Assembly (NCBI RefSeq): GCF_029762515.1
Contig: NZ_JARVGN010000017.1
Coordinates: 1 to 11,643 of the forward strand
Origin: Methanocalculus sp.
GTDB taxonomy: Archaea; Halobacteriota; Methanomicrobia; Methanomicrobiales; Methanocorpusculaceae
DNA: 11,643 nt
Direction of reading: 5' to 3'
Part shown: piece after piece, positions 1 through 11,643 of the stretch
Position numbering within the stretch: position 1 is the stretch's first letter
Layout of the letters: the number at the start of each line of letters is the position of its first letter
The notes under the pieces: generated by a model
Told to the model about the DNA's origin: nothing
Databases searched by the model: none
The model's input: only the letters and a program-made list of their open reading frames with translations
Made by a program: the position numbers and the translations under genes

Positions 1-74
1 GGACCGCCTTCGATTACCACCTCTGCGATGGCGATCAGATCCTTGGCACAGGTGATATCTTCCTCTCTAAGCAT
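1..74 (-). CDS. Possible 5' end of a gene running leftwards out of the window (start codon ATG at 72-74; N-terminus MLREEDITCAKDLIAIAEVVIEGG...)
   Basis: Reverse complement of 72-74 is ATG. It is preceded on the minus strand by AGGTG about 10 nt upstream (revcomp of 85-89). The frame stays open to position 1. Only 24 codons are visible, so identity is unknown. Confidence 0.25.
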   Translation of the reverse strand, partial: MLREEDITCAKDLIAIAEVVIEGG

Positions 75-146: not shown

Positions 147-2006
147 TTACCTCAATTTCTCCCCGCATCCCTTACAAATTTGGTCTGAACTGTCGTTTTT
201 GGTTTTACATACAGGGCAGATCAGACTCTCATCCGGTTGCACTGGGTTGATTATCACCGGCTGTCCCATGCCTCCGCCTCCGGCAACAACCGTTGAGCCC
301 TGTGCTTGATGGGCGCTGCTACGCGCCGTTGCTGTACTGCCCATCGCACCAAGAGCTTTATTCATTACATCGGCCAGCCGATCTGCATTTTCCCCAAATG
401 TTTTCTGCATCATATCCATGTATTTCTGCTGGTCTTCCAGTCGGGCATCGAATAGTTCCTTCATCTTGTCAGAACCAAATTTCGCTTTCAATGCTTCTGC
501 CGCTGTAACTGGATCCTTAGCATTGAGCGCGAGAATCTGTTCAGGAGAAAGGGCGTTAGCACGTCTCATTATCTCGATATTGGTAAGATATTCTGCAGCT
601 TTAGGATCACCAGTGATTACAATTTTTGATTCTGTCGAAGAATTGTCAATATTTTTAAGTCTCTTGCCTTCATTCTCGGTGGCATGATCTTGGTCCTTAT
701 GTTCGAGTTCCTGCTCTCCGGCCTTTTTTTGAAGAATTGCCTCAATTAATTTCTTTTTAGCCTCGATAAGAGCTATCAAATCTTTTCGATCACGATCGCG
801 CTCATGATCCGCAATTTTATCCTTATGATCCAAATCATGACCTAGTTCCGTATCTTCAATATCGTGACGGTGCTTCTGCTGAGCTTTCTCAAGGATAATT
901 GCGCGGATAAATTCCTGATCTTCCCTTTTATGAATAAGTTCAGTCTTTAACTCCTCGATATCATTCTCTCGAATAATGCCCGCCTTTGCAAGCTCATGGA
1001 TAAAAGAATCAACTGATTCCTTATCGGAAAGTTTACTGATTTCATCATCAGACAGCAATTTCCGGATTTTTTGTTCCGTATCAAGGTCCAGTCCTGTCGC
1101 TGTAACTTTCTTCGTCCTTTCGATGCGCCCGTCGATGATATCTTGCCATTCAGATTCATCGTATCGGACAAACCTGAGACGTTCTAAGGAAAATCCATAA
1201 TTTTGCAGGATTGGAGCGACTCGTGTTTGAACCCCACCTTCAATCTCATCTTTCACTGAAAGATTTCCATAGAGATCATCCATTCTATACTCGCGTAATG
1301 TTGATTGGACGACGCTCTGAATATCATACGAAAGATCGGCCTGAAGATCGGTCAGAAGAATCTGACTCTTTCCTTTCAGAAGATTGTCAATAAATTTTTT
1401 TGAGTCGGCGTTTCTGAGGGTCAGCGTACCGCTGACCCCGACCGGGATCGAATCGGCAGTACGGATCTGTGTCTTATCAAAGGTGAAATCGAGGGTGACA
1501 ATTCCGTCGTCAACGAGAACGATGGTTGCGCGGTCATCGAGATTGATTGGCAGGTGGGCCTCAAGGAATGTGCCGATATCATAATAGCCGGGTCTGAGAT
1601 CGCCCTGATACGCACCGCCCTGGAACAGAAGAGCGCGTGTTCCTTCAGCCACGGTGACCGTCTTTTTGAAAATGCCACGAAGGTCTTCAACTTCAAATCT
1701 GCTGGCAAAATCTCCCGGTTTTCTCCTCCACTGGCGGGTGCGAGTGAAATCCTCTTCATTTGATCCTACAAATTTGCCCAGTCGAGATGGTCTCACACTT
1801 GTTCCGCAACCTGGGCAGTATTTTGCATCCGGCGGAATGGAAGAACCACAATTATTGCATACATAGGCTTCGGATTTTGTTCCGCATTGCGAGCAGAATT
1901 TTGCATCCCGTTCCAGCGTTTTTCCACATTTCAAGCATTGTTTGCTTCCAGAAGCATTTTCTGCAATCTTTTCTATTTTCCCCTTGAATAGTTCCATAAT
2001 AATCAC
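147..2006 (-). CDS. SPFH/band-7 (flotillin/stomatin-like) domain protein with N-terminal double zinc ribbon, long charged coiled-coil region and C-terminal zinc ribbon; no obvious TM helix. Likely true start is ATG at 1995-1997 (MELFKGK...); the 2006 start is a GTG.
   Basis: This is the 619-aa ORF from the track. The N-terminus carries the CxxC spacing CLKCG...CSQCG...CNNCG...CPGCG, a double zinc ribbon. The central segment SIPVGVSGTLTLRNADSKKFIDNLL...LREYRMDDLYGN...LQNYGFSLERLRFVRYD matches the SPFH/band-7 pattern (strand-rich core, LR...Ly.nR motif, GI/F-x-L-x-x-v-x-I). A ~250-aa E/K/D/H-rich helical region follows, typical of flotillins. The C-terminus ends CPVCK...CKGCG, a zinc ribbon. 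Confidence 0.75.
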   Translation of the reverse strand: MIIMELFKGKIEKIAENASGSKQCLKCGKTLERDAKFCSQCGTKSEAYVCNNCGSSIPPDAKYCPGCGTSVRPSRLGKFVGSNEEDFTRTRQWRRKPGDFASRFEVEDLRGIFKKTVTVAEGTRALLFQGGAYQGDLRPGYYDIGTFLEAHLPINLDDRATIVLVDDGIVTLDFTFDKTQIRTADSIPVGVSGTLTLRNADSKKFIDNLLKGKSQILLTDLQADLSYDIQSVVQSTLREYRMDDLYGNLSVKDEIEGGVQTRVAPILQNYGFSLERLRFVRYDESEWQDIIDGRIERTKKVTATGLDLDTEQKIRKLLSDDEISKLSDKESVDSFIHELAKAGIIRENDIEELKTELIHKREDQEFIRAIILEKAQQKHRHDIEDTELGHDLDHKDKIADHERDRDRKDLIALIEAKKKLIEAILQKKAGEQELEHKDQDHATENEGKRLKNIDNSSTESKIVITGDPKAAEYLTNIEIMRRANALSPEQILALNAKDPVTAAEALKAKFGSDKMKELFDARLEDQQKYMDMMQKTFGENADRLADVMNKALGAMGSTATARSSAHQAQGSTVVAGGGGMGQPVIINPVQPDESLICPVCKTKNDSSDQICKGCGEKLR

Positions 2007-2252: not shown

Positions 2253-2855
2253 TCATTTTTTCAATCCTGAAGATAATGTGCGAAAGAAATCATTTCCCAC
2301 AGAATCAAATGTGAGTCGATTCATTTGCATCTCGGTAATGAGTGATTCGATGTATGATTCCTCAACAGAAGCGGTTACTTCCTGAAAGATATGTTCAGCG
2401 GTGATCTCTGAAAGTTCGTCCATTAGAGCCCTGTGTTCTTCTTTGCTGTAACTGGCTTTTGCCAGCCACCATTCGAGTGTATCTGGGTCTATAGCCTGCA
2501 TCTTCTTCCAGACACCCGAGCGTTTCAGCGTTGTTTGCTGCTCCTTTATGGCGATGATATTCGAAAGCACGCGAAGATCCTTCTCAAGATGCATGCATGT
2601 AGTGGCTTTAAGCTGCCAGGACTCGGAAATTGCTCTGATACGTTTTGCATAGAAGGATGTCCCCGCTTCTTCGCATCCGGATGATGCTGCCGAGAAGAGT
2701 GTTCTAATCTGCTGTTCCAGATCTGTTTTTTCGTTCTGCAGTTTCTGGATCTGATACTTCATCTGAGATTCTGCCTTTCTGAGCTCCCCAAGATTCATCG
2801 AATCAAAAGGAGTTGTGTGGAATAGCCTTGAGAAGATGCTCATCGATTGATGCAC
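2253..2855 (-). CDS. ESCRT-III/PspA (Snf7 / IM30) superfamily coiled-coil protein, paralog B; probable true start ATG at 2841-2843 (MSIFSRLF...), 196 aa
   Basis: This is the 200-aa ORF. The N-terminal MSIFSRLF resembles the N-terminal amphipathic motif of ESCRT-III (CHMP4 MSVFGKLF) and PspA (MGIFSRF). The long helical hairpin has heptad character. The segment LSNIIAIKEQQTTLKRSGVWKKMQAIDPDTLE resembles the Snf7 helix-3/4 region (LK..k.m.idkvd.l.d). It aligns along its whole length with the adjacent 2871-3473 ORF. AGGTGG lies about 10 nt upstream of ATG 2843 on the minus strand. Confidence 0.6.
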   Translation of the reverse strand: MHQSMSIFSRLFHTTPFDSMNLGELRKAESQMKYQIQKLQNEKTDLEQQIRTLFSAASSGCEEAGTSFYAKRIRAISESWQLKATTCMHLEKDLRVLSNIIAIKEQQTTLKRSGVWKKMQAIDPDTLEWWLAKASYSKEEHRALMDELSEITAEHIFQEVTASVEESYIESLITEMQMNRLTFDSVGNDFFRTLSSGLKK

Positions 2856-2870
2856 CCACCTGATACTCTC

Positions 2871-3473
2871 TCAATCTTCTAGCTCCGCGATGGCTTTCTC
2901 AAGATCCTTTTCTATTGAAAAGAGACCGCCTGCTTCTTCCAGCTCCAGAGTTCCTGTCTCAACGCTGTTCCAGATCTCAAACATCTGCTTTTCAGCTTCA
3001 TCGAGATCATTGTCTGAGTCCGCAATATCCAGAGCGAAGATCTGGTTCAGATCGTCAACAACGTTCTCGAATCCCTTGCCTGCGAGATTTACCTGGATGA
3101 GCGAACTTTCAAAGGCATCGGGTGATATACTCTGAATCTTATCCCAAATTTGTGTTTTCTGGAGATCACGCTGGTACTTCTTGATTACCACAAGGTTTGA
3201 GATAAACATGTACTGCTTGTGCAGTGCCATAAAGTTACGAACCTTTAGTTTGGCACTCATGTCCATCTGCTTGAGCTCTTGTGCAAGCATCTTCTTTTTA
3301 ATGAGGTCGGCACCAACACCTTCTCCGAATTTTTGTTTCTTCTCTCGTTCAATCCTGTCGATTTCCTTACGAAGGCGATTTATACGACTTTTGAGCTTGA
3401 GTTCTTCTTCCTGCAGTTCAGAAACCTTGAGTTTCTCAATCCGGTTACGGCGGAAATGTTCTGTGATTTTCAT
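2871..3473 (-). CDS. ESCRT-III/PspA superfamily coiled-coil protein, paralog A (200 aa), first gene of the leftward operon
   Basis: It has the same length and co-linear similarity to paralog B (ELQEEELKLKSRINRLRKEIDRIEREKKQKF vs ELRKAESQMKYQIQKLQNEKTDLEQQIRTLF; ISNLVVIKKYQRDLQKTQIWDKIQSISPDAFE vs LSNIIAIKEQQTTLKRSGVWKKMQAIDPDTLE). The C-terminal tail is acidic. Only 27 nt separate its stop from the start of paralog B. GGTGA lies 6 nt upstream of the ATG, and a TATA box sits about 35 nt upstream. Confidence 0.55.
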   Translation of the reverse strand: MKITEHFRRNRIEKLKVSELQEEELKLKSRINRLRKEIDRIEREKKQKFGEGVGADLIKKKMLAQELKQMDMSAKLKVRNFMALHKQYMFISNLVVIKKYQRDLQKTQIWDKIQSISPDAFESSLIQVNLAGKGFENVVDDLNQIFALDIADSDNDLDEAEKQMFEIWNSVETGTLELEEAGGLFSIEKDLEKAIAELED

Positions 3474-3506
3474 CTTGTGTCACCGATCGCGAATTGTCGT
3501 CAATCC

Positions 3507-3515
3507 TATATAAAA
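3507..3515. promoter_or_regulatory. TATA-box-like element TATATAAAA (minus-strand sense TTTTATATA preceded by purine-rich GGAGGAAA, a BRE-like element) in the divergent intergenic region; probably the promoter of the leftward ESCRT-III/PspA-like operon
   Basis: It is positioned about 35 nt upstream of the ATG at 3473 on the minus strand, with a purine-rich tract immediately upstream, as in archaeal BRE/TATA promoters. A second AT-rich candidate (ATAATATTAAT, 3534-3544) faces the rightward operon. Confidence 0.4.
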
Positions 3516-3517
3516 TT

Positions 3518-3534
3518 TCCTCCTTTACGGAGGA
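3518..3534. promoter_or_regulatory. Perfect dyad TCCTCC-N5-GGAGGA between the two divergent promoters; candidate operator
   Basis: TCCTCC (3518-3523) and GGAGGA (3529-3534) are exact reverse complements separated by TTTAC. It is located between the TATA candidates of the two divergent operons. Confidence 0.35.
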
Positions 3535-3564
3535 TAATATTAATGGCCAATATGTAGTGCTCCG

Positions 3565-4131
3565 ATGTGGAGGTATTTTTTTATAGGAATGGTGCGTACA
3601 GATCCAATAAGAATGGATTATCTCCTGGTTGTGGATTATCACTCTGACGCGGAACGTAAACGGATTGATGCCACCATCGAGCGGTGGAAATCAAAGAAAA
3701 ACGTGCGCAAAGAGAAAGGCGTATTGATCCGGGCAAGTGATGACGATATCGAAGCCTTTCTGCAAGATCTTTATGCGCGACTGGATAGGGGGAGCGAGAG
3801 TGTTCGGATGTACAAAGCAGAGGCATGTAGTCCGGACGTTGGAGAGGTATCACGAACACTTCGATATGAGGCAGAGATTGATCAAGAGACTGTCCGACAA
3901 TTCTTACGATATATTCTCAATAAACTCAATGGTAGTTATGAAGGAGTTCGGGATGGCGTAGAATCATACACAGTCTATACCCGGAAAGGTCAGGCGTCAA
4001 CAGGTTTCGTCTGGGCGGATCATCCAGGGAAAACTAAATTGACAATTTTCGTGAGCGGTTTTGGTGATGTGGTCTCTTTTGTTGCAGAGCGGATTGACGA
4101 AGAGCTGAAAGCATTTCTGGGAGGGGTATAA
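3565..4131 (+). CDS. Hypothetical protein (188 aa from ATG 3565; alternative starts ATG 3589 or 3613), first gene of the rightward operon; no recognisable domain
   Basis: This is a long ORF with no stops. Its stop TAA (4129-4131) overlaps by 1 nt the ATG of the next gene (TAATG), which supports a translated, co-transcribed gene. There is no convincing Shine-Dalgarno sequence for any start, so it may be leaderless. I could not match the sequence to a known family. Confidence 0.55.
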   Translation: MWRYFFIGMVRTDPIRMDYLLVVDYHSDAERKRIDATIERWKSKKNVRKEKGVLIRASDDDIEAFLQDLYARLDRGSESVRMYKAEACSPDVGEVSRTLRYEAEIDQETVRQFLRYILNKLNGSYEGVRDGVESYTVYTRKGQASTGFVWADHPGKTKLTIFVSGFGDVVSFVAERIDEELKAFLGGV

Positions 4132-6044
4132 TGGCTGGTCAAAAAAAGACTGATTCACATTCAAAATATGTTCATCATTATCGACTTGGAACAACGCAAT
4201 ATAAAGCATCGCGATTTCTTGAGGCAATTAAGTCATTTGATAATGCATTGAAATATAAACCACAATCATACTGGGCGTGGAATGAAAAAGGGAATGCGCT
4301 CAGAAAACTGGGTCGGCTTGAAGAGGCGTTGAAATGCTATAACCATGCTACTTCCCTTGACAGATCAAAATCATATCCATTCGCGTATATAGGTAGGGGA
4401 GACGTCCATCGTGAACAAAAAACGTATAAAAAAGCAATTTCTAACTATAATCAAGCCTTAAAAATCAAAAGGCATCCATTTGCCTTAAATGGTAAAGCAC
4501 AGTGCTTTTATGAAACAGGTAACAAAAATGAAGCATTTCAGCTAGCGGAAGAGGCAATACTTTTGCGTCCTTATTTTGAACATCCGTATATTTTAACCGG
4601 AGATATTCTATTTGACCGTGGTTTGTACAAAGATGCAAAGGAAAGGTATGAAAGAGCTATCGGATTAATCGATACAGGTTCAAGTGAACTTCGTGCAGCT
4701 TTACATAAAAAAATACAGGATTGCAGTATGAAGATTGATGCCGAATCTCCGGGGATTAAGGACGAGCCTGATATTGATCCGGAAGATATTGGTGCTCTTC
4801 TCTCTCAACTTCGCTCGGGAAATGACAGTGGGCGTGCAGAAGCATCGTATAATCTTGATATCTGTGCGAAAAAGAACCTGGCAGGCCAGATCATCAGACA
4901 CCGGCCCTTTCCTCTCTTTGAGTCTGCTCTGGGTGATCCGGTTCCGGAGGTGCGGAAACAAGTTCAATGGATTCTTGGTAATCTTGCACTGCACGGGTTT
5001 TCCTACGAAGTCACTGAATCTGGAGTATTGGGCCTTCTTGCAGCAAATCTTGGCGATACCAATGAAGAAGTGCGTAGTGCAGCAGCATGGACACTTGCCG
5101 TCATAGCTGAGGTCGGACAGGGTATTCGAGTGGCAGAAACGGGTATGATCCACTCCTGTATCCAGCTGTTAGATGACAGTAATGCTGGAGTCCGTTCTTC
5201 AGCGGCCCTTGCTCTGGATAAAGTTGCCTTTTATGCAAGCCCGGAGCCAATTGTTCATGCCGATGGGGTTGTGAACCTTGCTGGGCATATCCTGGATACG
5301 GATACCGGAGTACGTGCGAGTACCCTATGGGCGCTCTGGTCTATCGCCTTCCGAGGATATGTCGACAGTATATGCGATGCTCCGGACCTGATCACCGATC
5401 TTAAGCAGTCAGCCCAGAGCAGAAACCTTGAAATTCGGAAAGCTGCGATTTCTCTGATTGGGGAACTTTCAACCGTTTCTGATAAATCGTTCTTGGAAAA
5501 TAAAGATCTTGAGCGAATTCTCATTTCCGGGATTGGTTCCCGAAGTAACCGTGTTCGGGGTGCCTCGATATGGGCTGTTGGGAGATGGGCAGATGCAGGA
5601 ATTGCTACCTCCTTGATTCGGAGCGGGGTTAAGGAAGCAATGAGAAACTGCCGGGATGACCACACAAATGTTCACGTTTTTTACCACAGTGAACTCCGCT
5701 GGAAGCAACGCTCTATTGGCGGTATCGCGGACGATGTCCTGAAAAAGCTGGATGAACCCACGGCCGCTCCAGATGATCTTGCTCCCTGCGAAGCTGATTA
5801 TCGTACCGCATATTTTGTCGTAAATAGTTATGTAGAACATTTGGCCCAAAGCGAACTTCATGAGGCTCGCAAAAAAGTCGTTCATCTGGAACAATTTGTA
5901 TGTGGTCCTACTCTTGAGGTAGTCCGGTATCAAAGGGATCACCTGGATCTCTATATCCAACAAGAAATTGATGAAATTCCTGAAGAGTTCGTCAATGAAG
6001 CAGAGTTATTAAAAGAGGAAATCCTCCGCAGAGCGCTGGCATAG
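4131..6044 (+). CDS. TPR-repeat + HEAT-repeat (PBS-lyase-type) scaffold protein, 637 aa
   Basis: The N-terminal ~200 aa carries TPR-like 34-residue repeats (AIKSFDNALKYKPQSYWAWNEKGNALRKLGRLEEALKCYNHATSLD ... AISNYNQALKIKRH ...). The middle carries at least 7 HEAT_PBS-like repeats with the signature D.d..VR..A..aLg.i (DPVPEVRKQVQWILGNLA, DTNEEVRSAAAWTLAVIA, DSNAGVRSSAALALDKVA, DTDTGVRASTLWALWSIA, SRNLEIRKAAISLIGEL, SRSNRVRGASIWAVGRWA). A strong RBS, GGAGGGG, lies 6-11 nt upstream. Confidence 0.8.
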   Translation: MAGQKKTDSHSKYVHHYRLGTTQYKASRFLEAIKSFDNALKYKPQSYWAWNEKGNALRKLGRLEEALKCYNHATSLDRSKSYPFAYIGRGDVHREQKTYKKAISNYNQALKIKRHPFALNGKAQCFYETGNKNEAFQLAEEAILLRPYFEHPYILTGDILFDRGLYKDAKERYERAIGLIDTGSSELRAALHKKIQDCSMKIDAESPGIKDEPDIDPEDIGALLSQLRSGNDSGRAEASYNLDICAKKNLAGQIIRHRPFPLFESALGDPVPEVRKQVQWILGNLALHGFSYEVTESGVLGLLAANLGDTNEEVRSAAAWTLAVIAEVGQGIRVAETGMIHSCIQLLDDSNAGVRSSAALALDKVAFYASPEPIVHADGVVNLAGHILDTDTGVRASTLWALWSIAFRGYVDSICDAPDLITDLKQSAQSRNLEIRKAAISLIGELSTVSDKSFLENKDLERILISGIGSRSNRVRGASIWAVGRWADAGIATSLIRSGVKEAMRNCRDDHTNVHVFYHSELRWKQRSIGGIADDVLKKLDEPTAAPDDLAPCEADYRTAYFVVNSYVEHLAQSELHEARKKVVHLEQFVCGPTLEVVRYQRDHLDLYIQQEIDEIPEEFVNEAELLKEEILRRALA

Positions 6045-6052
6045 GGGATAAT

Positions 6053-7234
6053 ATGAACGTGGATCTCAGTGGGTTTCTGACGAAAGAACTGAAGAAAACA
6101 ATACGGGAATATCGAGCAGCATGTTCTGAAAATGATTCCCGCATAGTCCGGGAGAAAGCCCATATCTGTGCGATTCTGAGTCAAAAATTAGCTGAGCAGT
6201 CGCCATCATTTCGGAATAAATACCTCTCAGATGCAAAAAAATGGGAATTTATTGCATCCGGAAAAAATCCGGTGTCCTTGGATATCAGTAATAGAGATCC
6301 CTCCCGACGACCAGAAACTCAGGATTCTGCGAATGAATCGGATCTGGATTTTGATGCAACGTCGTTGATATCATCATCATCGGTCAGGTGGGATGATATC
6401 GGTGGTCTGGATGAGGTTAAACGTCTGGTAAAGGAAACGGTAGTCATCGCGGGTCTTCGGAAACCTGCTGCAATCCAGCCATGGAAGGGAATTCTTCTCT
6501 TTGGCCCTCCAGGGACGGGAAAGACGATGATTGCAGCAGCGGCTGCAGGGAGTCTGCATGCGACTTTCTTTGATGTGAAAGCCGATCGTATTCTCTCAAA
6601 ATATTTTGGGGAGTCATCAAAGATCATTGCCTCTCTCTACGCATCAGCAAGGAAGCGGGCACCTTCGATTGTGTTTATTGATGAGTTTGATGCGCTCGGT
6701 TCAGCAAGAAGTGAAGGTACCGGCGAAGCAACACGAAAGCTGCTCTCTTCTCTTCTCACCGAACTTGATGGACTGCAAGACAAGAACGCTGATCGGCTTC
6801 TTCTCACTATGGCAGCCACCAATACTCCCTGGGATCTTGATCCGGCAGTTCTGTCTCGTTTTCCCCGGCGAATTTTTGTGACGCTTCCGGATGAGGCATC
6901 CTGTGCAGCAATCATCAGACTTCATCTGCGCGGTCTTGAAGTCGCTGATCTTGAAATTTCAGATCTTGGGAGGAGGTGTGTGGAACAGGGGTATTCAGGT
7001 AGAGATATTCAGAACCTCTGCCAGCAAGCGATCTGGGCCATGATCCACGAGGAAAATCCACAACTGGAGAAGCTCGCAGATCTCACGTTTGATGAGTTGA
7101 GTGAACAAGTGCTGAAGACAAGAGGTCTGTTTGCCGGTGATTTTACGGAGGCATTTGAGATTGTGCGTTCGCCAGTGCGCGAGGCCGACCTGGACCGGTA
7201 TAGGCAATGGAGTGAGGAGTATGGGGGGATGTGA
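6053..7234 (+). CDS. Vps4/CdvC-like (katanin/spastin 'meiotic' clade) AAA+ ATPase with helical MIT-like N-terminal domain, 393 aa
   Basis: The Walker A motif is GPPGTGKT, preceded by PWKGILLF, the PW-x-G-ILL signature of this clade. The Walker B motif is IVFIDEFD. The second region of homology, TNTPWDLDPAVLSRFPRRIFVTLPD, aligns closely with Vps4 [25 protein letters not shown]. The C-terminus YRQWSEEYGG resembles the Vps4, katanin and spastin C-terminal W..E(F/Y)G. The N-terminal ~70 aa is an all-helical region, consistent with an MIT three-helix bundle. The RBS AGGGG lies 5 nt upstream. The gene is spaced 8 nt after the previous gene. Confidence 0.9.
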   Translation: MNVDLSGFLTKELKKTIREYRAACSENDSRIVREKAHICAILSQKLAEQSPSFRNKYLSDAKKWEFIASGKNPVSLDISNRDPSRRPETQDSANESDLDFDATSLISSSSVRWDDIGGLDEVKRLVKETVVIAGLRKPAAIQPWKGILLFGPPGTGKTMIAAAAAGSLHATFFDVKADRILSKYFGESSKIIASLYASARKRAPSIVFIDEFDALGSARSEGTGEATRKLLSSLLTELDGLQDKNADRLLLTMAATNTPWDLDPAVLSRFPRRIFVTLPDEASCAAIIRLHLRGLEVADLEISDLGRRCVEQGYSGRDIQNLCQQAIWAMIHEENPQLEKLADLTFDELSEQVLKTRGLFAGDFTEAFEIVRSPVREADLDRYRQWSEEYGGM

Positions 7235-7341
7235 CCTGAACCAATATCATGGACTTACATGTACTTTCCGTCAGTTTGTTACAGCAAAAAAATGTGTTAA
7301 ACATCTCCGCTTAATCATAAATTTCAGGAGTAGAGCGGTCG

Positions 7342-7515
7342 GTGAAGGTGCGGGGCGCCAGATCTGCCTCGTGGGTGGTGGGCAACCTGCTCTGGGTGGC
7401 CTTCGGCGTGGCGGAGCGGAACGTGTACGTGACTGCATTATTTGCCTTTTACTGGGTGACAGCGGTGGTGGGATTGCGGAATAATTGGGGTGGATACGAA
7501 GCAAATATTGAATGA
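7342..7515 (+). CDS. Small hydrophobic ORF (57 aa from GTG 7342: VKVRGARSASWVVGNLLWVAFGVAERNVYVTALFAFYWVTAVVGLRNNWGGYEANIE), putative 2-TM hairpin mini-protein or a remnant of a membrane-protein gene, inside a ~62% GC island
   Basis: It is absent from the ORF track because it is shorter than 60 aa. The frame opens after TAA 7318-7320 and closes at TGA 7513-7515. There are only GTG starts (7342, 7348), with AGGAG 11 nt upstream of 7342. It has two hydrophobic stretches separated by ERN. Its GC content is well above the flanks. The overlapping track ORFs 7131-7484(+) and 7271-7504(-) translate to low-complexity R/P/G-rich junk. Confidence 0.3.
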   Translation: MKVRGARSASWVVGNLLWVAFGVAERNVYVTALFAFYWVTAVVGLRNNWGGYEANIE

Positions 7516-7546: not shown

Positions 7547-8251
7547 TTAAATTTTTGAATTCATCCATTTCCGTACAATTGTCTTTACAAGATTTTGTGC
7601 ATCATGAAGTTCCATCGGGTTTTCAGGTTTCTGAAATTTTTTTCGAGCATGTCGGGCCTCTTTTCCAATTGCGTCGTAACTCTGGGCTGTTTGTTTGAAT
7701 CGCCCAATCTCGCTATAAAATTCTCCATTTTTCTTCACAGGTGCATAACCGTCTTCCTGGACTAATTCAATAATATTATAGAGCACACCAAATGAGTTGA
7801 AATCGTGGTCTATGAGTTCATTAACTCGCTGGACTCTCTCATCTGTTTGTGCGAGCCGAATTAATTTGATAATTTTGTTATCTGGTGGAGATTCAACAGT
7901 AGTTCCATCTTTTTTTGTAACGGTCACTTGGACTCGTGCGCGTATATGAATTGAAGCGGTTAAAGGTTCAAGAAAAATTGTCTTTTTACCGTCTTCATCA
8001 ATGAATTGAATTCCTCCTCGTTTTATCAAATCCGACGAATTGAAAAGTAGTTTTCTTGCTGCATTGATATTGATCAACAATTCATCGGCTTTTGCCTTGA
8101 CAGATTTATGATCGGAAGAATTCTCCAATGATGTAAATTCAAGTAGATATTTTTCACCTTCATTGAGAACACGAAAGTCAGTTGACTGGAGAATTTCACT
8201 CAATTCTGCTAGATCATTCGCATCTCCGTGAAGATCAACCTGCCACTTCAT
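7547..8251 (-). CDS. Hypothetical protein (234 aa), last gene of the Type I R-M operon (24 nt after the hsdS stop), AT-rich; function unknown
   Basis: This is a clean ORF with AGGT 8 nt upstream of the ATG at 8251, co-directional with hsdS and closely spaced to it. I recognise no known motifs in the protein, which is a mixed alpha/beta, Lys-rich sequence. Confidence 0.65.
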   Translation of the reverse strand: MKWQVDLHGDANDLAELSEILQSTDFRVLNEGEKYLLEFTSLENSSDHKSVKAKADELLININAARKLLFNSSDLIKRGGIQFIDEDGKKTIFLEPLTASIHIRARVQVTVTKKDGTTVESPPDNKIIKLIRLAQTDERVQRVNELIDHDFNSFGVLYNIIELVQEDGYAPVKKNGEFYSEIGRFKQTAQSYDAIGKEARHARKKFQKPENPMELHDAQNLVKTIVRKWMNSKI

Positions 8252-8275: not shown

Positions 8276-9799
8276 TCATTTTTTTGCCTTTATTCGCTCA
8301 AGCAGCACACTTGCTGGTTCATACTCCCGTTCCTCCCGCCGGGCCAGTTCTGCCTCGGTGGACACCAGCTGTCCGGAAAATGCCTGGGCGAGGATGGACT
8401 GCCGGAGTGTTTCGGTGCGTTCTTTAGCAGCGGTGATGCGGGCCTCGATCTGATCGGCGAGGGCGAATAGAGCGTCGGCCCGGTGGACAATTTCATCCTG
8501 TTCGGAAAGCGGAGGGAGGGGGATTGGTAAAGATTTGATATTACTCAAATTTAACCTGGCTCGACCCACACCGTGAATCGATTCTACCATTCTCTTCCTT
8601 GTTGATTCAGTATTGATCGCGAAGATGACGTATTTATTATTAGCAATTTCTTGATGCGGATTGAGTCTAATGCAATCAGCTTTAACAATTGCGGGTCCGA
8701 AATCATCTGGGATTTGACAAGCCCGAGGGATTGGGTCACCTAGTGTTCCAATAACAAGATCCTTTGGAAAAACTTGATGTTTTTTTAATTTTGTGAAATG
8801 ATCTGTTGAGATATGCGATTTCACATCGATGAAATTACCATCGCCTAAGTTTTGTAATCGTATGACTCTTGGACCGGAATCAGTATAATGCTCAGTTTTC
8901 AGATTCGATCCAAAAGGACCGTCTGTTATTGAATTTGCTTCGATACCAGATACCTGATCTATACTAGCCCAAGTCCATTTATCTGAAACAATTGGTAAAT
9001 CACTGATTTCTATTCCTTTTGGTTCACGATATTTTTCTTTCCACTTCGAATTTTTCGGAGTTTTTCCTTTATCTTGGAAAGTCTGTATTTGTTCTCTTTC
9101 CCAAGCCATTCGTTTTTGATTTAAGATATTTCCCACAGCCTCTTTTGCATCTGTAATGTCCGGATTCTCCGACCGCCAGTCCTCCGTCAGCCGCCCTTCG
9201 CACGCAGCGGCGAGCACCGCCTGCCTGAACTGCTGCACGATGCCCGGCACCCTGTCAAGGCGGGCCTGTGCGGCGTCCAGCCGGGCGAACAACGCCTCTA
9301 TGGCAGCTACGATGCGGTGCTGTTCGGCGAGAGGGGGGAGGGGGATTTTCAACTCTTTTAATTTTGTTGCATTACAATTTGGCTGAGCAATTCCTGAAAT
9401 ATTCTGAGAAATTTGGGTCCAATATTCGGATGTGCTAAAAAATAGACTCATGAATTTTTGATTGACATTTCTGTTTGGTCTAAGCCGAATGAGATACGAG
9501 GCAAAAATGCTATCTGGGCAGGAAGATATCAGATAGCTCTTGCCTGTAGTTGCACCAGTTCGTGCAAAAACAATGTCTCCAGACTCCAATTTATATTTGG
9601 AAATTTGTTCTTCCTTGATGCTGCAAAACGGAACATCATTCCAATCAACAAAATCATTCTGGATATCTGTAATTCGCAAAAAATGAGGTCCAACTTTATT
9701 TTTATCAGCTGAAGCCGTATATCCGTATTTTATTTCATCGGAGATATCGTTAATAGTTGATTGAATCCAACCTTCTGGCAACTCACTATTCTGCGGCAT
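8276..9799 (-). CDS. hsdS: Type I restriction-modification specificity subunit HsdS, copy 1 (507 aa), with two TRDs
   Basis: The N-terminus has MPQNSELPEGW, the canonical LPEGW HsdS start. The central conserved region is LPPLAEQHRIVAAIEALFARLDAAQARLDRV... The C-terminal conserved region is LPPLSEQDEIVHRADALFALADQIEARI...LLERIKAKK. The two conserved regions show the internal repeat structure typical of HsdS, flanking two variable TRDs of about 150 and 210 aa. Confidence 0.9.
   Translation of the reverse strand: MPQNSELPEGWIQSTINDISDEIKYGYTASADKNKVGPHFLRITDIQNDFVDWNDVPFCSIKEEQISKYKLESGDIVFARTGATTGKSYLISSCPDSIFASYLIRLRPNRNVNQKFMSLFFSTSEYWTQISQNISGIAQPNCNATKLKELKIPLPPLAEQHRIVAAIEALFARLDAAQARLDRVPGIVQQFRQAVLAAACEGRLTEDWRSENPDITDAKEAVGNILNQKRMAWEREQIQTFQDKGKTPKNSKWKEKYREPKGIEISDLPIVSDKWTWASIDQVSGIEANSITDGPFGSNLKTEHYTDSGPRVIRLQNLGDGNFIDVKSHISTDHFTKLKKHQVFPKDLVIGTLGDPIPRACQIPDDFGPAIVKADCIRLNPHQEIANNKYVIFAINTESTRKRMVESIHGVGRARLNLSNIKSLPIPLPPLSEQDEIVHRADALFALADQIEARITAAKERTETLRQSILAQAFSGQLVSTEAELARREEREYEPASVLLERIKAKK
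8279..8527. repeat. HsdS C-terminal conserved block, copy 1; direct repeat of 9854-10102 (~85-90% nt identity by eye, identical runs up to 37 nt)
   Basis: The identical runs include GAGGATGGACTGCCGGAGTGTTTCGGTGCGTTCTTT and AGAGCGTCGGCCCGGTGGACAATTTCATCCTGTTCGG. The block is GC-rich (~60%). Confidence 0.85.
9164..9349. repeat. HsdS central conserved block, copy 1; direct repeat of 10670-10855 (~90% nt identity by eye)
   Basis: Shared runs include ATGCGGTGCTGTTCGGCGAGAGGGGGGAG, GCGTCCAGCCGGGCGAACA and GATGCCCGGCACCCT. The block is GC-rich. Confidence 0.85.
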
Positions 9800-9850: not shown

Positions 9851-11245
9851 TTAAATAGAAGATTTAATACGCTCCAGCAGCACTAGTGCTGGTTCATATT
9901 CTCGCCTCTCCCGCTGGGCCAGCTCCGCCTCGGTAGGCACCAGCTGCCCGGAAAATGCCTGGGTGAGGATGGACTGCCGGAGTGTTTCGGTGCGTTCTTT
10001 GGCGGTGGCGACGCGGGCCTCGATCTGGTCTGCGAGGGCGAAGAGAGCGTCGGCCCGGTGGACAATTTCATCCTGTTCGGGGATAGGTGGAAGGGGGATT
10101 GCAATCGACTTTAAAATAGTACCATTTATTCCTGGACGAGTTTGTCCTCGAATTTGATTTTGAATTTGTTGCTGAACAGGAATTGCTCCTCTCAGTGTTT
10201 GAAATAAATAATGGGGAGATACTAAATCTTGATTCGAAGTAATGCGATAGACATGCTTGGTGATAATTGCGGTCTCACAATTTTCGGGAAAGACGCAACA
10301 TCTGCCAATTGTTGCCATGACAGTGATTAACAAATCCAGGGGCCTTGCAGTGTATTTTCTTAATTCTTCATATTTTTCCGGACTTATTCGGTGTTCTTTT
10401 CCATAGGAAAAAAATCCGTTCTGTACATTATCAATTCCAATTGCTAAAATCCCAGAATCTTGAAACTCTGAATGAAGTAGATTGCTGCCAAAAGGGCCAC
10501 TTTGGATAGAACGAGCCTCTGGTGAGGCCAGTTGCTCTATGGTTGCCCAACACCATTTATCGGGTATATCATTTAAACCAGAAGTATCGGGCGTTTGGAT
10601 TTTCTTTTTTCCGGACGATAGCGTATTAAGTGTTATTTCAAGGTATTTTCGTGAATTCTCTATATTCGGATGTTCCGCCCGCCAATCCTCCGTCAGCCGC
10701 CCATCGCACGCAGCAGCGAGCACCGCCTGCCGGAACTGCTGTAGGATGCCCGGCACCCTATCAAGGCGGGCTTGTGCAGCGTCCAGCCGGGCGAACAGCG
10801 CCTCGATGGCGGTGACTATGCGGTGCTGTTCGGCGAGAGGGGGGAGTGGTATTGTCAAGGCTTTGACAATCTTTTGAGTTATAAGAGGTTGCGAGCTCCC
10901 AGTCTGGATACTAATCCAATCTACGGTCTGAAAATACCTGATTAACCAATTGAACAAATCTTGAGAATTGGGTTTTATAACTAAAGTGTTGTCAGTAACC
11001 CAGGCATTTTTTTTGTATACTGTAAGTGCTCCCGCTGCGCCAACTCTACCGAGGGTAATAATTGGTGATGTGAAATTATAGCTATCAGTATAGCCTATGG
11101 GCCCTCCTGCCCCTGCAACAGGGTAAGGCTGATCTGGAATTTTACTATAGTCTTCCCTTTTTATGTACTTTCCACTGGCAATTGAGATGAGAGAGCCCAA
11201 ATCTGAAGTCTCCCACCCCTCCGGCAGCTCACTCTTCTGTTGCAT
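9851..11245 (-). CDS. hsdS: Type I restriction-modification specificity subunit HsdS, copy 2 (464 aa), with two different TRDs
   Basis: It starts MQQKSELPEGWE. Its central block (LPPLAEQHRIVTAIEALFARLDAAQARLDRV...) and C-terminal block (...EQDEIVHRADALFALADQIEARV...LLERIKSSI) are near-identical to copy 1, whereas the two TRDs are unrelated to those of copy 1. The start overlaps the hsdM stop by 17 nt. Confidence 0.9.
   Translation of the reverse strand: MQQKSELPEGWETSDLGSLISIASGKYIKREDYSKIPDQPYPVAGAGGPIGYTDSYNFTSPIITLGRVGAAGALTVYKKNAWVTDNTLVIKPNSQDLFNWLIRYFQTVDWISIQTGSSQPLITQKIVKALTIPLPPLAEQHRIVTAIEALFARLDAAQARLDRVPGILQQFRQAVLAAACDGRLTEDWRAEHPNIENSRKYLEITLNTLSSGKKKIQTPDTSGLNDIPDKWCWATIEQLASPEARSIQSGPFGSNLLHSEFQDSGILAIGIDNVQNGFFSYGKEHRISPEKYEELRKYTARPLDLLITVMATIGRCCVFPENCETAIITKHVYRITSNQDLVSPHYLFQTLRGAIPVQQQIQNQIRGQTRPGINGTILKSIAIPLPPIPEQDEIVHRADALFALADQIEARVATAKERTETLRQSILTQAFSGQLVPTEAELAQRERREYEPALVLLERIKSSI
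9854..10102. repeat. HsdS C-terminal conserved block, copy 2 (direct repeat of 8279-8527)
   Basis: See the partner block 8279-8527. Both copies lie in the same orientation on the minus strand. Confidence 0.85.
10670..10855. repeat. HsdS central conserved block, copy 2 (direct repeat of 9164-9349)
   Basis: See the partner block 9164-9349. Confidence 0.85.
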
Positions 11246-11643
11246 ACCCGTTCCCCATCAGGTCGAGAATCGCCTGTAGTTCGTCGACCGCGGCCTCGAG
11301 TTCGTCGATGGCCTCGGCAGCGAGTTCCTCCGGAAGTGGCAGGTCCTCGCTGGACTCCAGCGACTCGTCGCGCAGCCACTTCAGCGAGTCGATCTTGTAG
11401 TCTCGCTCCTGCAGCTCGGTGATATGGAACGAGCGCCAGCGGTCGGCGGGGGAGTCAGCGGCATTGCGCTTTGCCCGGGCGTTGGGGTCGGGGCCGTAGC
11501 AGTGCTCGAACTCGGCGAAATGCTCCGGGGTGAGGGGGCGGTCCTTCTTGGTGATCTTGGGCACGTTGGTGCGGGCGTCGTAGACCCAGGTGTGCTCGGT
11601 GGGCGCGCCCCTGGTGAAGAAAATCACGTTCGTCTTGGTGCCC
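11229..11643 (-). CDS. hsdM: Type I R-M methyltransferase subunit HsdM, C-terminal ~138 codons (5' end lies beyond the window edge)
   Basis: The frame is open to the window end (...GTKTNVIFFTRGAPTEHTWVYDART...), and the track 'start' at 11627 is a GTG inside the gene. NVIFFTKG...VWFYD is the conserved C-terminal core of HsdM, followed by the acidic helical tail that contacts HsdS. GC is about 65%. Confidence 0.85.
   Translation of the reverse strand, partial: GTKTNVIFFTRGAPTEHTWVYDARTNVPKITKKDRPLTPEHFAEFEHCYGPDPNARAKRNAADSPADRWRSFHITELQERDYKIDSLKWLRDESLESSEDLPLPEELAAEAIDELEAAVDELQAILDLMGNGYATEE

Follow-up and report, generated by a model that had tools for sequence, protein, structure and literature searches.

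The stretch analysed here, positions 1 to 11,643 of contig NZ_JARVGN010000017.1 in Methanocalculus sp. assembly GCF_029762515.1 (the window, 11,643 nt), encodes at 6053 to 7234 a Vps4-type ATPase of the AAA (ATPases associated with diverse cellular activities) superfamily. [quoted passage not shown] The gene was assigned as probably encoding the Vps4 (ESCRT-IV) ATPase of the 'Main'-clade euryarchaeal ESCRT-like system, and the window would show a Main-clade locus cut short by the contig end rather than Vps4 without ESCRT-III.

Correspondence with the Main-clade gene set

The 'Main'-clade gene set was described as Vps4 (arCOG01307), the Snf7-family proteins arCOG09747 and arCOG09749, arCOG09748, and arCOG08177, often accompanied by genes for a membrane Ser/Thr kinase and for a phosphatase of the PP2C type (Makarova et al. 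2024, mBio 15:e00335-24). In that paper, arCOG09748 was composed of a helical domain, a coiled coil, and a winged helix; arCOG08177 was assigned an inactivated Cas2-like domain plus a TBP-fold DUF3568; and the Cdc48-rooted tree placed arCOG01307 of Thermococcales, Methanococcales, and Methanomicrobiales in the 'Main' Vps4 clade. The exemplar locus given there is PAP_RS08600 to PAP_RS08635 of Palaeococcus pacificus.

The exemplar locus (coordinates in agreement with PAP_RS08610 to PAP_RS08635 of its Table S2) was compared with the window by BLASTP, and four families were matched: (i) the ATPase and P. pacificus Vps4 (P0115 = WP_048165619, contained in Table S1/S2) shared 54% identity over the full length; (ii) a 200-aa protein, designated protein A, shared 46% identity (E 6e-66) with PAP_RS08625 (arCOG09747); (iii) a second 200-aa protein, designated protein B, shared 29% identity (E 8e-17) with PAP_RS08620 (arCOG09749); and (iv) a 188-aa protein shared 31% identity (E 6e-28) with PAP_RS08635 (arCOG08177). 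As for the fifth family, the 24 codons at the contig edge matched the N-termini of L021:2280-3191 and L003:2124-3032, two 303-aa proteins from the loci closest to that of Methanocalculus, and these displayed 34% identity (E 1e-32) to residues 3 to 197 of P. pacificus arCOG09748 and, apart from a zinc ribbon, retained only the N-terminal domain of that family. Table S1 also lists Vps4 from Methanocorpusculum parvum XII and from Methanosarcina sp. MTP4, both of which were recovered here as homologs (Makarova et al. 2024).

The Methanocalculus and P. pacificus loci thus shared Vps4, two Snf7-family paralogs, arCOG08177, and the N-terminal domain of arCOG09748, but they displayed the following differences: all genes ran in one direction in P. 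pacificus, while two divergent units were found here; arCOG09748 was reduced to the N-terminal domain plus zinc ribbon in the close relatives of the Methanocalculus locus; a zinc-ribbon-SPFH protein and a TPR-HEAT protein were added in Methanocalculus; and Ser/Thr kinase and PP2C genes were present in the close relatives, while the Methanocalculus contig ends before that position. In these relatives, a kinase gene (L021:480-2231) followed the gene for the reduced arCOG09748 protein, kinase plus PP2C genes followed the SPFH gene in L001, and kinase plus PP2C genes were likewise found in L002.

The gene neighborhoods of 25 loci encoding ATPase orthologs were compared, 21 of which reach far enough upstream for protein A to be scored. 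Protein A adjoined the ATPase in all 21, and protein B, the 188-aa arCOG08177-type protein, and kinases were present in most loci, contrary to the notion of an unusual context. A context lacking CdvB had also been claimed; two Snf7-family orthologs, proteins A and B, lie 2.6 to 3.8 kb upstream of the ATPase gene on the opposite strand. Vps4 homologs of this kind had further been called sparsely described, but arCOG01307 Vps4 loci of Methanomicrobia and Thermococci have been catalogued (Makarova et al. 2024). The identities of the ATPase and its core partners are already in the literature, and the SPFH and solenoid additions are lineage-specific.

The two proteins originally named as partners of the ATPase both exist, but they are lineage-specific. 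A zinc-ribbon-SPFH ortholog beside the ESCRT-III pair was found in only 7 of the 25 loci (L001, L003, L010, L011, L015, L021, and L023, labelled as Methanoplanus, Methanogenium, Methanomicrobiaceae, Methanocorpusculum, and Methanomethylophilaceae, plus one mis-binned contig), and full-length TPR-HEAT orthologs in only two, L003 (Methanogenium sp. MK-MG) and L021. A divergent arCOG09748 was considered for the SPFH protein and rejected, BLASTP against Thermococcus arCOG09748 giving no similarity; a comparison of the SPFH protein with the ESCRT-III-like profile by hhalign was also negative. The text of the Main-clade paper names an SPFH/coiled-coil/zinc-ribbon protein for the Meth_adaptin clade only (Makarova et al. 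2024).

Other solenoid proteins occupied related positions. L010 (M. parvum) harbored a 282-aa TPR-zinc-ribbon protein in the slot between arCOG08177 and Vps4 and Sel1-zinc-ribbon and TPR-zinc-ribbon proteins 3' of Vps4, and weak TPR matches in the arCOG08177/Vps4 slot of L011 and L015 suggest an arrangement like that of L010. Across positions 3820 to 12617 of L010 (M. parvum XII), almost all accessory proteins encoded near Vps4 ended in a zinc ribbon, namely an SPFH protein of 543 aa, TPR proteins of 282 and 461 aa, and a Sel1-repeat protein of 625 aa. This C-terminal zinc ribbon, present also on the reduced arCOG09748 protein of L021, looks like a shared docking tag; the Methanocalculus TPR-HEAT protein lacked such a ribbon, its C-terminal tail being helical and free of Cys.

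Contigs that had been assigned in binning to Oscillospiraceae, Cloacimonadota, Sphaerochaeta, Paludibacter, and Bacteroidales also carried copies of the module (L005, L011, and L017; P0061 and P0069). Transfer of the module to bacteria was considered and rejected: L005 was 99.6% identical in DNA to the Methanomicrobiales metagenome-assembled contig L006, and L011 was 84 to 90% identical to M. parvum L010, and thus L005 and L011 at least are binning errors.

Euryarchaeal ESCRT systems are predicted to reach back to the last archaeal common ancestor; because they are experimentally unstudied, every locus that is clearly delimited, with its gene starts corrected and its partners listed, helps the choice of constructs. 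In the Methanomicrobiales variant, a Main-clade locus also encodes SPFH and solenoid proteins, which extends the SPFH-ESCRT link noted earlier for another archaeal clade and for bacterial PspA. The advance is incremental, namely lineage-specific additions to a known, published system.

The ATPase and the ESCRT-III-like pair

The predicted open reading frame (ORF) was confirmed as an ATG-to-stop frame of 393 aa, and all three motifs quoted for it were located: PWKGILLFGPPGTGKT at aa 143 to 158 (nt 6479 to 6526), containing Walker A GPPGTGKT (nt 6503 to 6526); the second region of homology (SRH) NTPWDLDPAVLSRFPRRIFVTLPD at aa 257 to 280 (nt 6821 to 6892); and WSEEYG, which closes the C-terminal helix, at aa 386 to 391 (nt 7208 to 7225). 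Walker B IVFIDEFD was found at aa 206 to 213 (nt 6668 to 6691) and pore loop 1 KYFGES at aa 183 to 188 (nt 6599 to 6616). The protein has a single AAA cassette with intact Walker A/B and pore loop 1. In the linker that precedes the cassette, the consensus was below 50% at every residue of a 38-sequence alignment, and the predicted local distance difference test (pLDDT) score of the model was low at residues 71 to 80.

The NCBI record of this protein (P0003, 100% identity) comprises 289 aa only, its start lying 104 codons late (6053 to 6364 omitted). The long form is real, because residues 1 to 393 were covered by homologs of 47 to 76% identity, D4, L9, A36, and W64 of the N-terminus were invariant in the 38 aligned sequences, and a Shine-Dalgarno-like GGGGAT lies 5 nt 5' of the ATG; the NCBI start removes the MIT-like domain.

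Pfam detected one AAA domain (PF00004; aa 147 to 277, 125 bits) and Vps4_C (PF09336; 21.8 bits, cutoff 21.3), the latter being present in 36 of the 38 homologs (best E 4.8e-11). Katanin p60-like 1 was the top single-cassette match in the Protein Data Bank (PDB), with 193 bits and an alignment reaching the last residue of the ATPase, and Cdc48/p97 totals were the sum of two cassettes (146 + 149 bits). The C-terminal 94 aa alone matched katanin (E 7.8e-6), fidgetin-like 1, spastin, and Vps4. The SRH segment alone scored 43.7 bits against Metallosphaera Vps4 (4d81), 41.3 against CdvC (4lcb), 41.2 against MEI-1, 38.4 against spastin, and 26.5 against p97 D2; its alignment to p97 needed a 2-residue gap where p97 carries R-P or R-R, and it displayed the meiotic-clade form, without the R-P-G insert (D-x-A-x-x-R-F-x-[KR]-R-[IV]-[YF]-[IV]-x-L-P). 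The NCBIfam scores (CDC48 190.7, CdvC 182.7, and PAN 175.9 bits) were all far under their cutoffs and gave no discrimination; in the 370-position CdvC model, aa 96 to 390 aligned to positions 85 to 368 with about 183 bits against an equivalog cutoff of 650. Since katanin was best per cassette and the C-terminal matches and SRH scores agreed, membership of the Vps4/katanin/spastin type, rather than the Cdc48 or proteasomal one, is supported at the sequence level, as originally proposed.

The proposal of an MIT domain in the N-terminal 70 residues or so held for the fold and not for the sequence. The predicted three-helix bundle was of high confidence and superposed on the MIT domain of Sulfolobus Vps4 (2w2u). 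Pfam MIT (PF04212) did not match the ATPase and was not among the 25 most frequent families of the 38 homologs (E <= 1), and a hidden Markov model profile of 23 ATPase N-termini found only designed helical proteins, and no MIT chain, among PDB sequences.

Proteins A and B were paralogous to each other (hhalign probability 99.7%, E 5.7e-27). Their membership of ESCRT-III is probable, mainly on the basis of Snf7-family orthology, predicted fold, and composition. Both arCOG09747 and arCOG09749 are labelled 'Snf7 family protein' in Table S2 (Makarova et al. 2024). The AlphaFold2 model of protein A (pLDDT 74) displayed a short N-terminal helix, a long hairpin (17 to 51/57 to 99), shorter helices, and a low-confidence acidic tail. 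Foldseek of this model gave nothing at E <= 0.001; its top 50 matches, individually non-significant, were mostly Vipp1, CdvB2, Asgard ESCRT-IIIB, CHMP2A/3, CHMP1B, Snf7, and PspA, with Vipp1 first and S. islandicus CdvB at a probability of 0.97, matches of a kind that many coiled coils share. The net charge of protein A was +13 in the first half and -18 in the second, and such basic-then-acidic asymmetry is a classic ESCRT-III trait. The protein B family had the N-terminal consensus MxIFSRLFGxxNP, which we take to resemble the M-x-x-LFG start of CHMP proteins, and the protein A family had a conserved C-terminal element S-phi-E-K-x-phi-E-K. Profile search of 1.84 billion representatives recovered only 192 relatives of the ESCRT-III-like domain, and Pfam Snf7 was matched by 2 of 73 distant relatives (best E 2.5e-4), which constitutes a transitive link.

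Some observations weigh against these assignments. Sequence searches did not directly bear out ESCRT-III membership of the 200-aa proteins: in scans with Pfam Snf7 (PF03357) and PspA/IM30, no Snf7 match was found in 17 protein A plus 13 protein B members (E <= 10); with profiles of the 200-aa families against PDB sequences, the best relevant match was CdvB at E 0.34; and hhalign of protein A against P. pacificus arCOG07402, a third Snf7 protein that is Pfam-detectable, was negative. In the ATPase itself, Ser268 (LSRF, aa 267 to 270, nt 6851 to 6862), invariant in 38/38 aligned family members, occupies what we take to be the site of the first of two adjacent arginine fingers in Vps4/katanin (RRRF), and for that reason the ATPase kinetics may differ; if this presumed alignment is right, Vps4 of this clade would use one adjacent arginine. 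Literature search found no experimental study of any member of this clade.

The ESCRT-III-like domain was also observed in other architectures. P0258 (294 aa, encoded on a 1,084-bp Logan contig) carried TPR at aa 11 to 100 plus the N-terminal half of protein A at aa 119 to 226 (whole-protein E 1.8e-34), which could reflect a true TPR/protein A fusion or an artefact of assembly or gene calling on a very short contig. P0297 (L085:1076-3454) contained SPFH (aa 22 to 182), ESCRT-III-like (aa 310 to 483), and TIR (aa 673 to 785) domains, and it couples SPFH to the ESCRT-III-like domain independently. P0306 (L084:8001-10193) contained ESCRT-III-like (aa 239 to 409; hhalign 97.5%, E 8e-12) and TIR domains; its gene had no Vps4 neighbor and lay in an island that also encodes NACHT/DUF4062 STAND NTPases, a CHAT protease, and a further TIR protein. 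The domain content of P0297 and P0306 suggests a polymerizing, membrane-linked TIR effector.

Possible mechanism and rival roles

The steps of the following mechanism were modelled on Sulfolobus and eukaryotic ESCRT. Proteins A and B, with their basic N-terminal hairpin core and acidic, flexible C-terminal half, would co-polymerize on the membrane, at a site that the SPFH protein probably marks or encloses as a membrane microdomain. The Vps4 hexamer would dock by its MIT-like domain on the conserved C-terminal helix S-phi-E-K-x-phi-E-K of the Snf7-like proteins and, using ATP, would thread subunits through its pore, so that the polymer is remodelled or disassembled; this may serve membrane scission, repair of the membrane, or vesicle or protein sorting. 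Vesicle or protein sorting has been proposed as the role (Makarova et al. 2024). The arCOG08177 protein, the arCOG09748 N-terminal domain, and the TPR-HEAT solenoid may act as adaptors or cargo-binding parts, and the Ser/Thr kinase and phosphatase of related loci, whose genes may lie past the contig end here, probably regulate the system.

Crenarchaeal CdvABC, with CdvC as Vps4 and CdvB as ESCRT-III, shared with the Methanocalculus system an MIT-linker-AAA-C-terminal-helix ATPase of about 370 to 390 aa and ESCRT-III-like partners encoded nearby. No window protein matched the CdvA family in Pfam or NCBIfam, in line with the original prediction, and the 200-aa partners lacked the CdvB-type winged helix and were not recognized by Pfam as Snf7 proteins. 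Division of Methanomicrobiales is generally attributed to FtsZ, so a cell-division role for the Methanocalculus system is unlikely.

Eukaryotic Vps4 with Vta1/LIP5 shared the domain order, the C-terminal helix family (Vps4_C), and the presumed recognition of ESCRT-III tails by MIT, but its beta-domain insert, the Vta1/LIP5 binding site, was missing here: the lid helix (aa ~312 to 331) and the C-terminal helix lie only about 30 residues apart, and yeast Vps4 chains aligned only to residues 44 to 92 of the C-terminal 94-aa fragment of the ATPase, while katanin aligned throughout. No Vta1 homolog was present, and the TPR-HEAT protein had no Vta1-like feature. The suggestion that the latter acts like Vta1/LIP5 is thus unsupported, because the solenoid and the ATPase are not conserved together and there is no room for the Vta1-binding beta-domain. 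Katanin p60, spastin, and fidgetin shared the SRH, the C-terminal helix, and an N-terminal MIT-type domain, but they sever microtubules, whereas the context here was of no tubulin-type substrate and the partners were ESCRT-III-like. Bacterial PspA/Vipp1 with the SPFH protein YdjI likewise has an ESCRT-III-superfamily gene beside an SPFH gene, but such systems were reported without a Vps4-like ATPase, which is present in the Methanocalculus locus.

A different biological role, which leaves the molecular identity of the ATPase as assigned, would be that of a stress-response, membrane-repair, or antiviral conflict system, in which SPFH and ESCRT-III-like proteins sense or seal damage and the ATPase recycles them. 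This was judged unlikely. The type I restriction-modification locus adjoining the cluster (two hsdS genes and the 3' end of hsdM) would fit such a role, but restriction-modification genes were absent from 25/25 related loci, and the adjacency is therefore local. The AAA core matched IetA of PADLOC (124 bits) and IteA of NCBIfam (121 bits), but the IetA match covered only the generic AAA core (aa 139 to 340), the IteA cutoff is 510, and no IetS-type protease was found in the window; the Iet (IetA/IetS) anti-phage system was accordingly rejected, PADLOC giving only generic AAA matches with no IetS partner. Distant ESCRT-III-like homologs are fused to SPFH and TIR, one of them in the NACHT/DUF4062, CHAT, and TIR island, but these TIR fusions had no Vps4 neighbor and thus represent a different deployment of the domain. 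The literature precedent of bacterial PspA with YdjI and the patchy distribution among euryarchaea also favor defence or repair; against them, the MIT-like domain, the Vps4_C helix, and the paired Snf7-like genes fit ESCRT architecture.

A more elaborate version of the ESCRT reading was regarded as quite improbable: in one Methanomicrobiales sub-clade, the Main-type system would have acquired a zinc-ribbon-SPFH cage protein and the TPR-HEAT solenoid, and the solenoid plus the TBP-fold, adaptin-appendage-like arCOG08177 might form a split adaptin-like cargo adaptor acting on an SPFH-delimited patch, with scission by ESCRT-III/Vps4. If true, this would be a prokaryotic coat-adaptor-scission module outside Asgard archaea, and the SPFH-ESCRT-III-like-TIR fusions of conflict islands would represent a separate use of SPFH/ESCRT-III coupling, as a membrane-damage-triggered polymerization switch.

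It is very improbable that the ATPase is a Vps4-like unfoldase for an SPFH assembly or for solenoid-presented clients, with the 200-aa proteins as generic coiled-coil scaffolds. Such a function would accord with the missing Pfam Snf7 match of the 200-aa families, with their non-significant structural matches common to coiled coils, and with their NCBI name, 'chromosome assembly protein'; solenoid genes in the ATPase operon, with start and stop codons that overlap or nearly abut in the window and in Methanocorpusculum, and the fusion of TPR to the N-terminal half of protein A in P0258 point the same way. Across orders, however, no partner of the ATPase was better conserved than the 200-aa pair, while SPFH and solenoids were lineage-specific; both proteins were orthologous to arCOGs annotated as Snf7 family, and they displayed the ESCRT-III charge asymmetry, the N-terminal helix motif, and the transitive Pfam Snf7 link.

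Finally, it is scarcely credible that a Cdc48/PAN-like proteostasis AAA protein was wrongly placed in the Vps4 clade: NCBIfam CDC48 and PAN scored close to CdvC and the PDB totals were highest for Cdc48/p97, but those totals sum two cassettes with katanin best per cassette, the ATPase has one cassette and a Vps4_C helix without a Cdc48-type N domain or a proteasome-docking C-terminal motif, its SRH lacks the R-P-G insert, and its N-terminal domain is MIT-like in fold, so that this identity was excluded on per-cassette scores, C-terminal helix, SRH form, and N-terminal fold.

Layout of the locus and remaining features

The genes for the arCOG08177-type protein, the TPR-HEAT protein, and Vps4 constitute a tightly packed operon with Vps4 last, as read from the gene spacing: the stop of the first overlaps the start of the second (ATGA at 4128 to 4131), and 8 nt separate the TPR-HEAT stop from the Vps4 start. 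The ESCRT-III pair is transcribed divergently from this operon and is followed by the zinc-ribbon-SPFH gene and then by the arCOG09748-like gene, the contig ending 146 nt beyond the SPFH gene. The features are listed in Table 1.

Table 1. Coordinates of the Vps4 gene, its segments, and its neighbors in the window
Feature	Position	Strand	Details
Vps4-family AAA ATPase (arCOG01307 type)	6053..7234	+	ATG-to-stop ORF, 393 aa; Pfam AAA and Vps4_C
MIT-like three-helix bundle, ATPase N-terminus	6053..6262	+	aa 1-70; helices 5-26, 29-49, 51-69 (predicted)
Variable low-complexity linker of ATPase	6263..6376	+	aa 71-108
AAA cassette, lid domain, and C-terminal helix of ATPase	6377..7231	+	
ESCRT-III-like protein A (ortholog of arCOG09747, 'Snf7 family')	2871..3473	-	200 aa
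ESCRT-III-like protein B (ortholog of arCOG09749, 'Snf7 family')	2253..2855	-	200 aa
arCOG08177-type protein	3565..4131	+	188 aa
TPR (aa ~15-200) and HEAT/ARM (aa ~260-500) solenoid	4131..6044	+	637 aa; Pfam TPR_2 80.7 bits, HEAT 79.1 bits
Zinc-ribbon-SPFH protein	147..2006	-	619 aa; Pfam Band_7 36.7 bits, DZR, Zn_Ribbon_1
Gene start cut by contig end, arCOG09748-like N-terminus	1..74	-	24 codons, MLREEDITCAKDLIAIAEVVIEGG
Divergent intergenic region between ESCRT-III pair and Vps4 operon	3474..3612	.	139 bp, AT-rich

The intergenic region contained TATA-like stretches (e.g., TATATAAAA at about 3508 to 3516) and is a putative divergent promoter region. The true start of protein B is likely the ATG at 2843 (MSIFSRLF...), and that of the arCOG08177-type protein, whose homologs aligned only from aa 17 on, is likely the ATG at 3613 (MDYLLVV...). 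The 619-aa protein began with two zinc ribbons, continued with an SPFH/Band-7 domain and a long helical region, and had a further zinc ribbon at the C-terminus. Pfam scan found no domain in the arCOG08177-type protein, protein A, or protein B.

Scans of the whole window for tRNA genes and Rfam families found none. A GC-rich stretch (7330 to 7480), with no Rfam or tRNA match, was observed inside the AT-rich 312-nt non-coding gap 3' of Vps4, and the ORFs across it (7131 to 7484 on the forward strand and 7271 to 7504 on the reverse) look spurious. A 234-aa ORF (7547 to 8251, reverse strand) separates the Vps4 operon from the restriction-modification genes; Pfam, NCBIfam, and PADLOC gave no match for it, and none of the 25 related loci had a counterpart. 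Beyond it, two hsdS genes for type I restriction specificity were arranged in tandem (8276 to 9799 and 9851 to 11245, both on the reverse strand), and the 3' end of hsdM was found at 11229 to 11627. The two hsdS genes shared two direct repeats: (i) 8289 to 8553 versus 9864 to 10128 (265 nt, 83%) and (ii) 9156 to 9358 versus 10662 to 10864 (203 nt, 88%). These repeats correspond to the conserved HsdS helices and are possible substrates for recombinational shuffling of the target-recognition domains.

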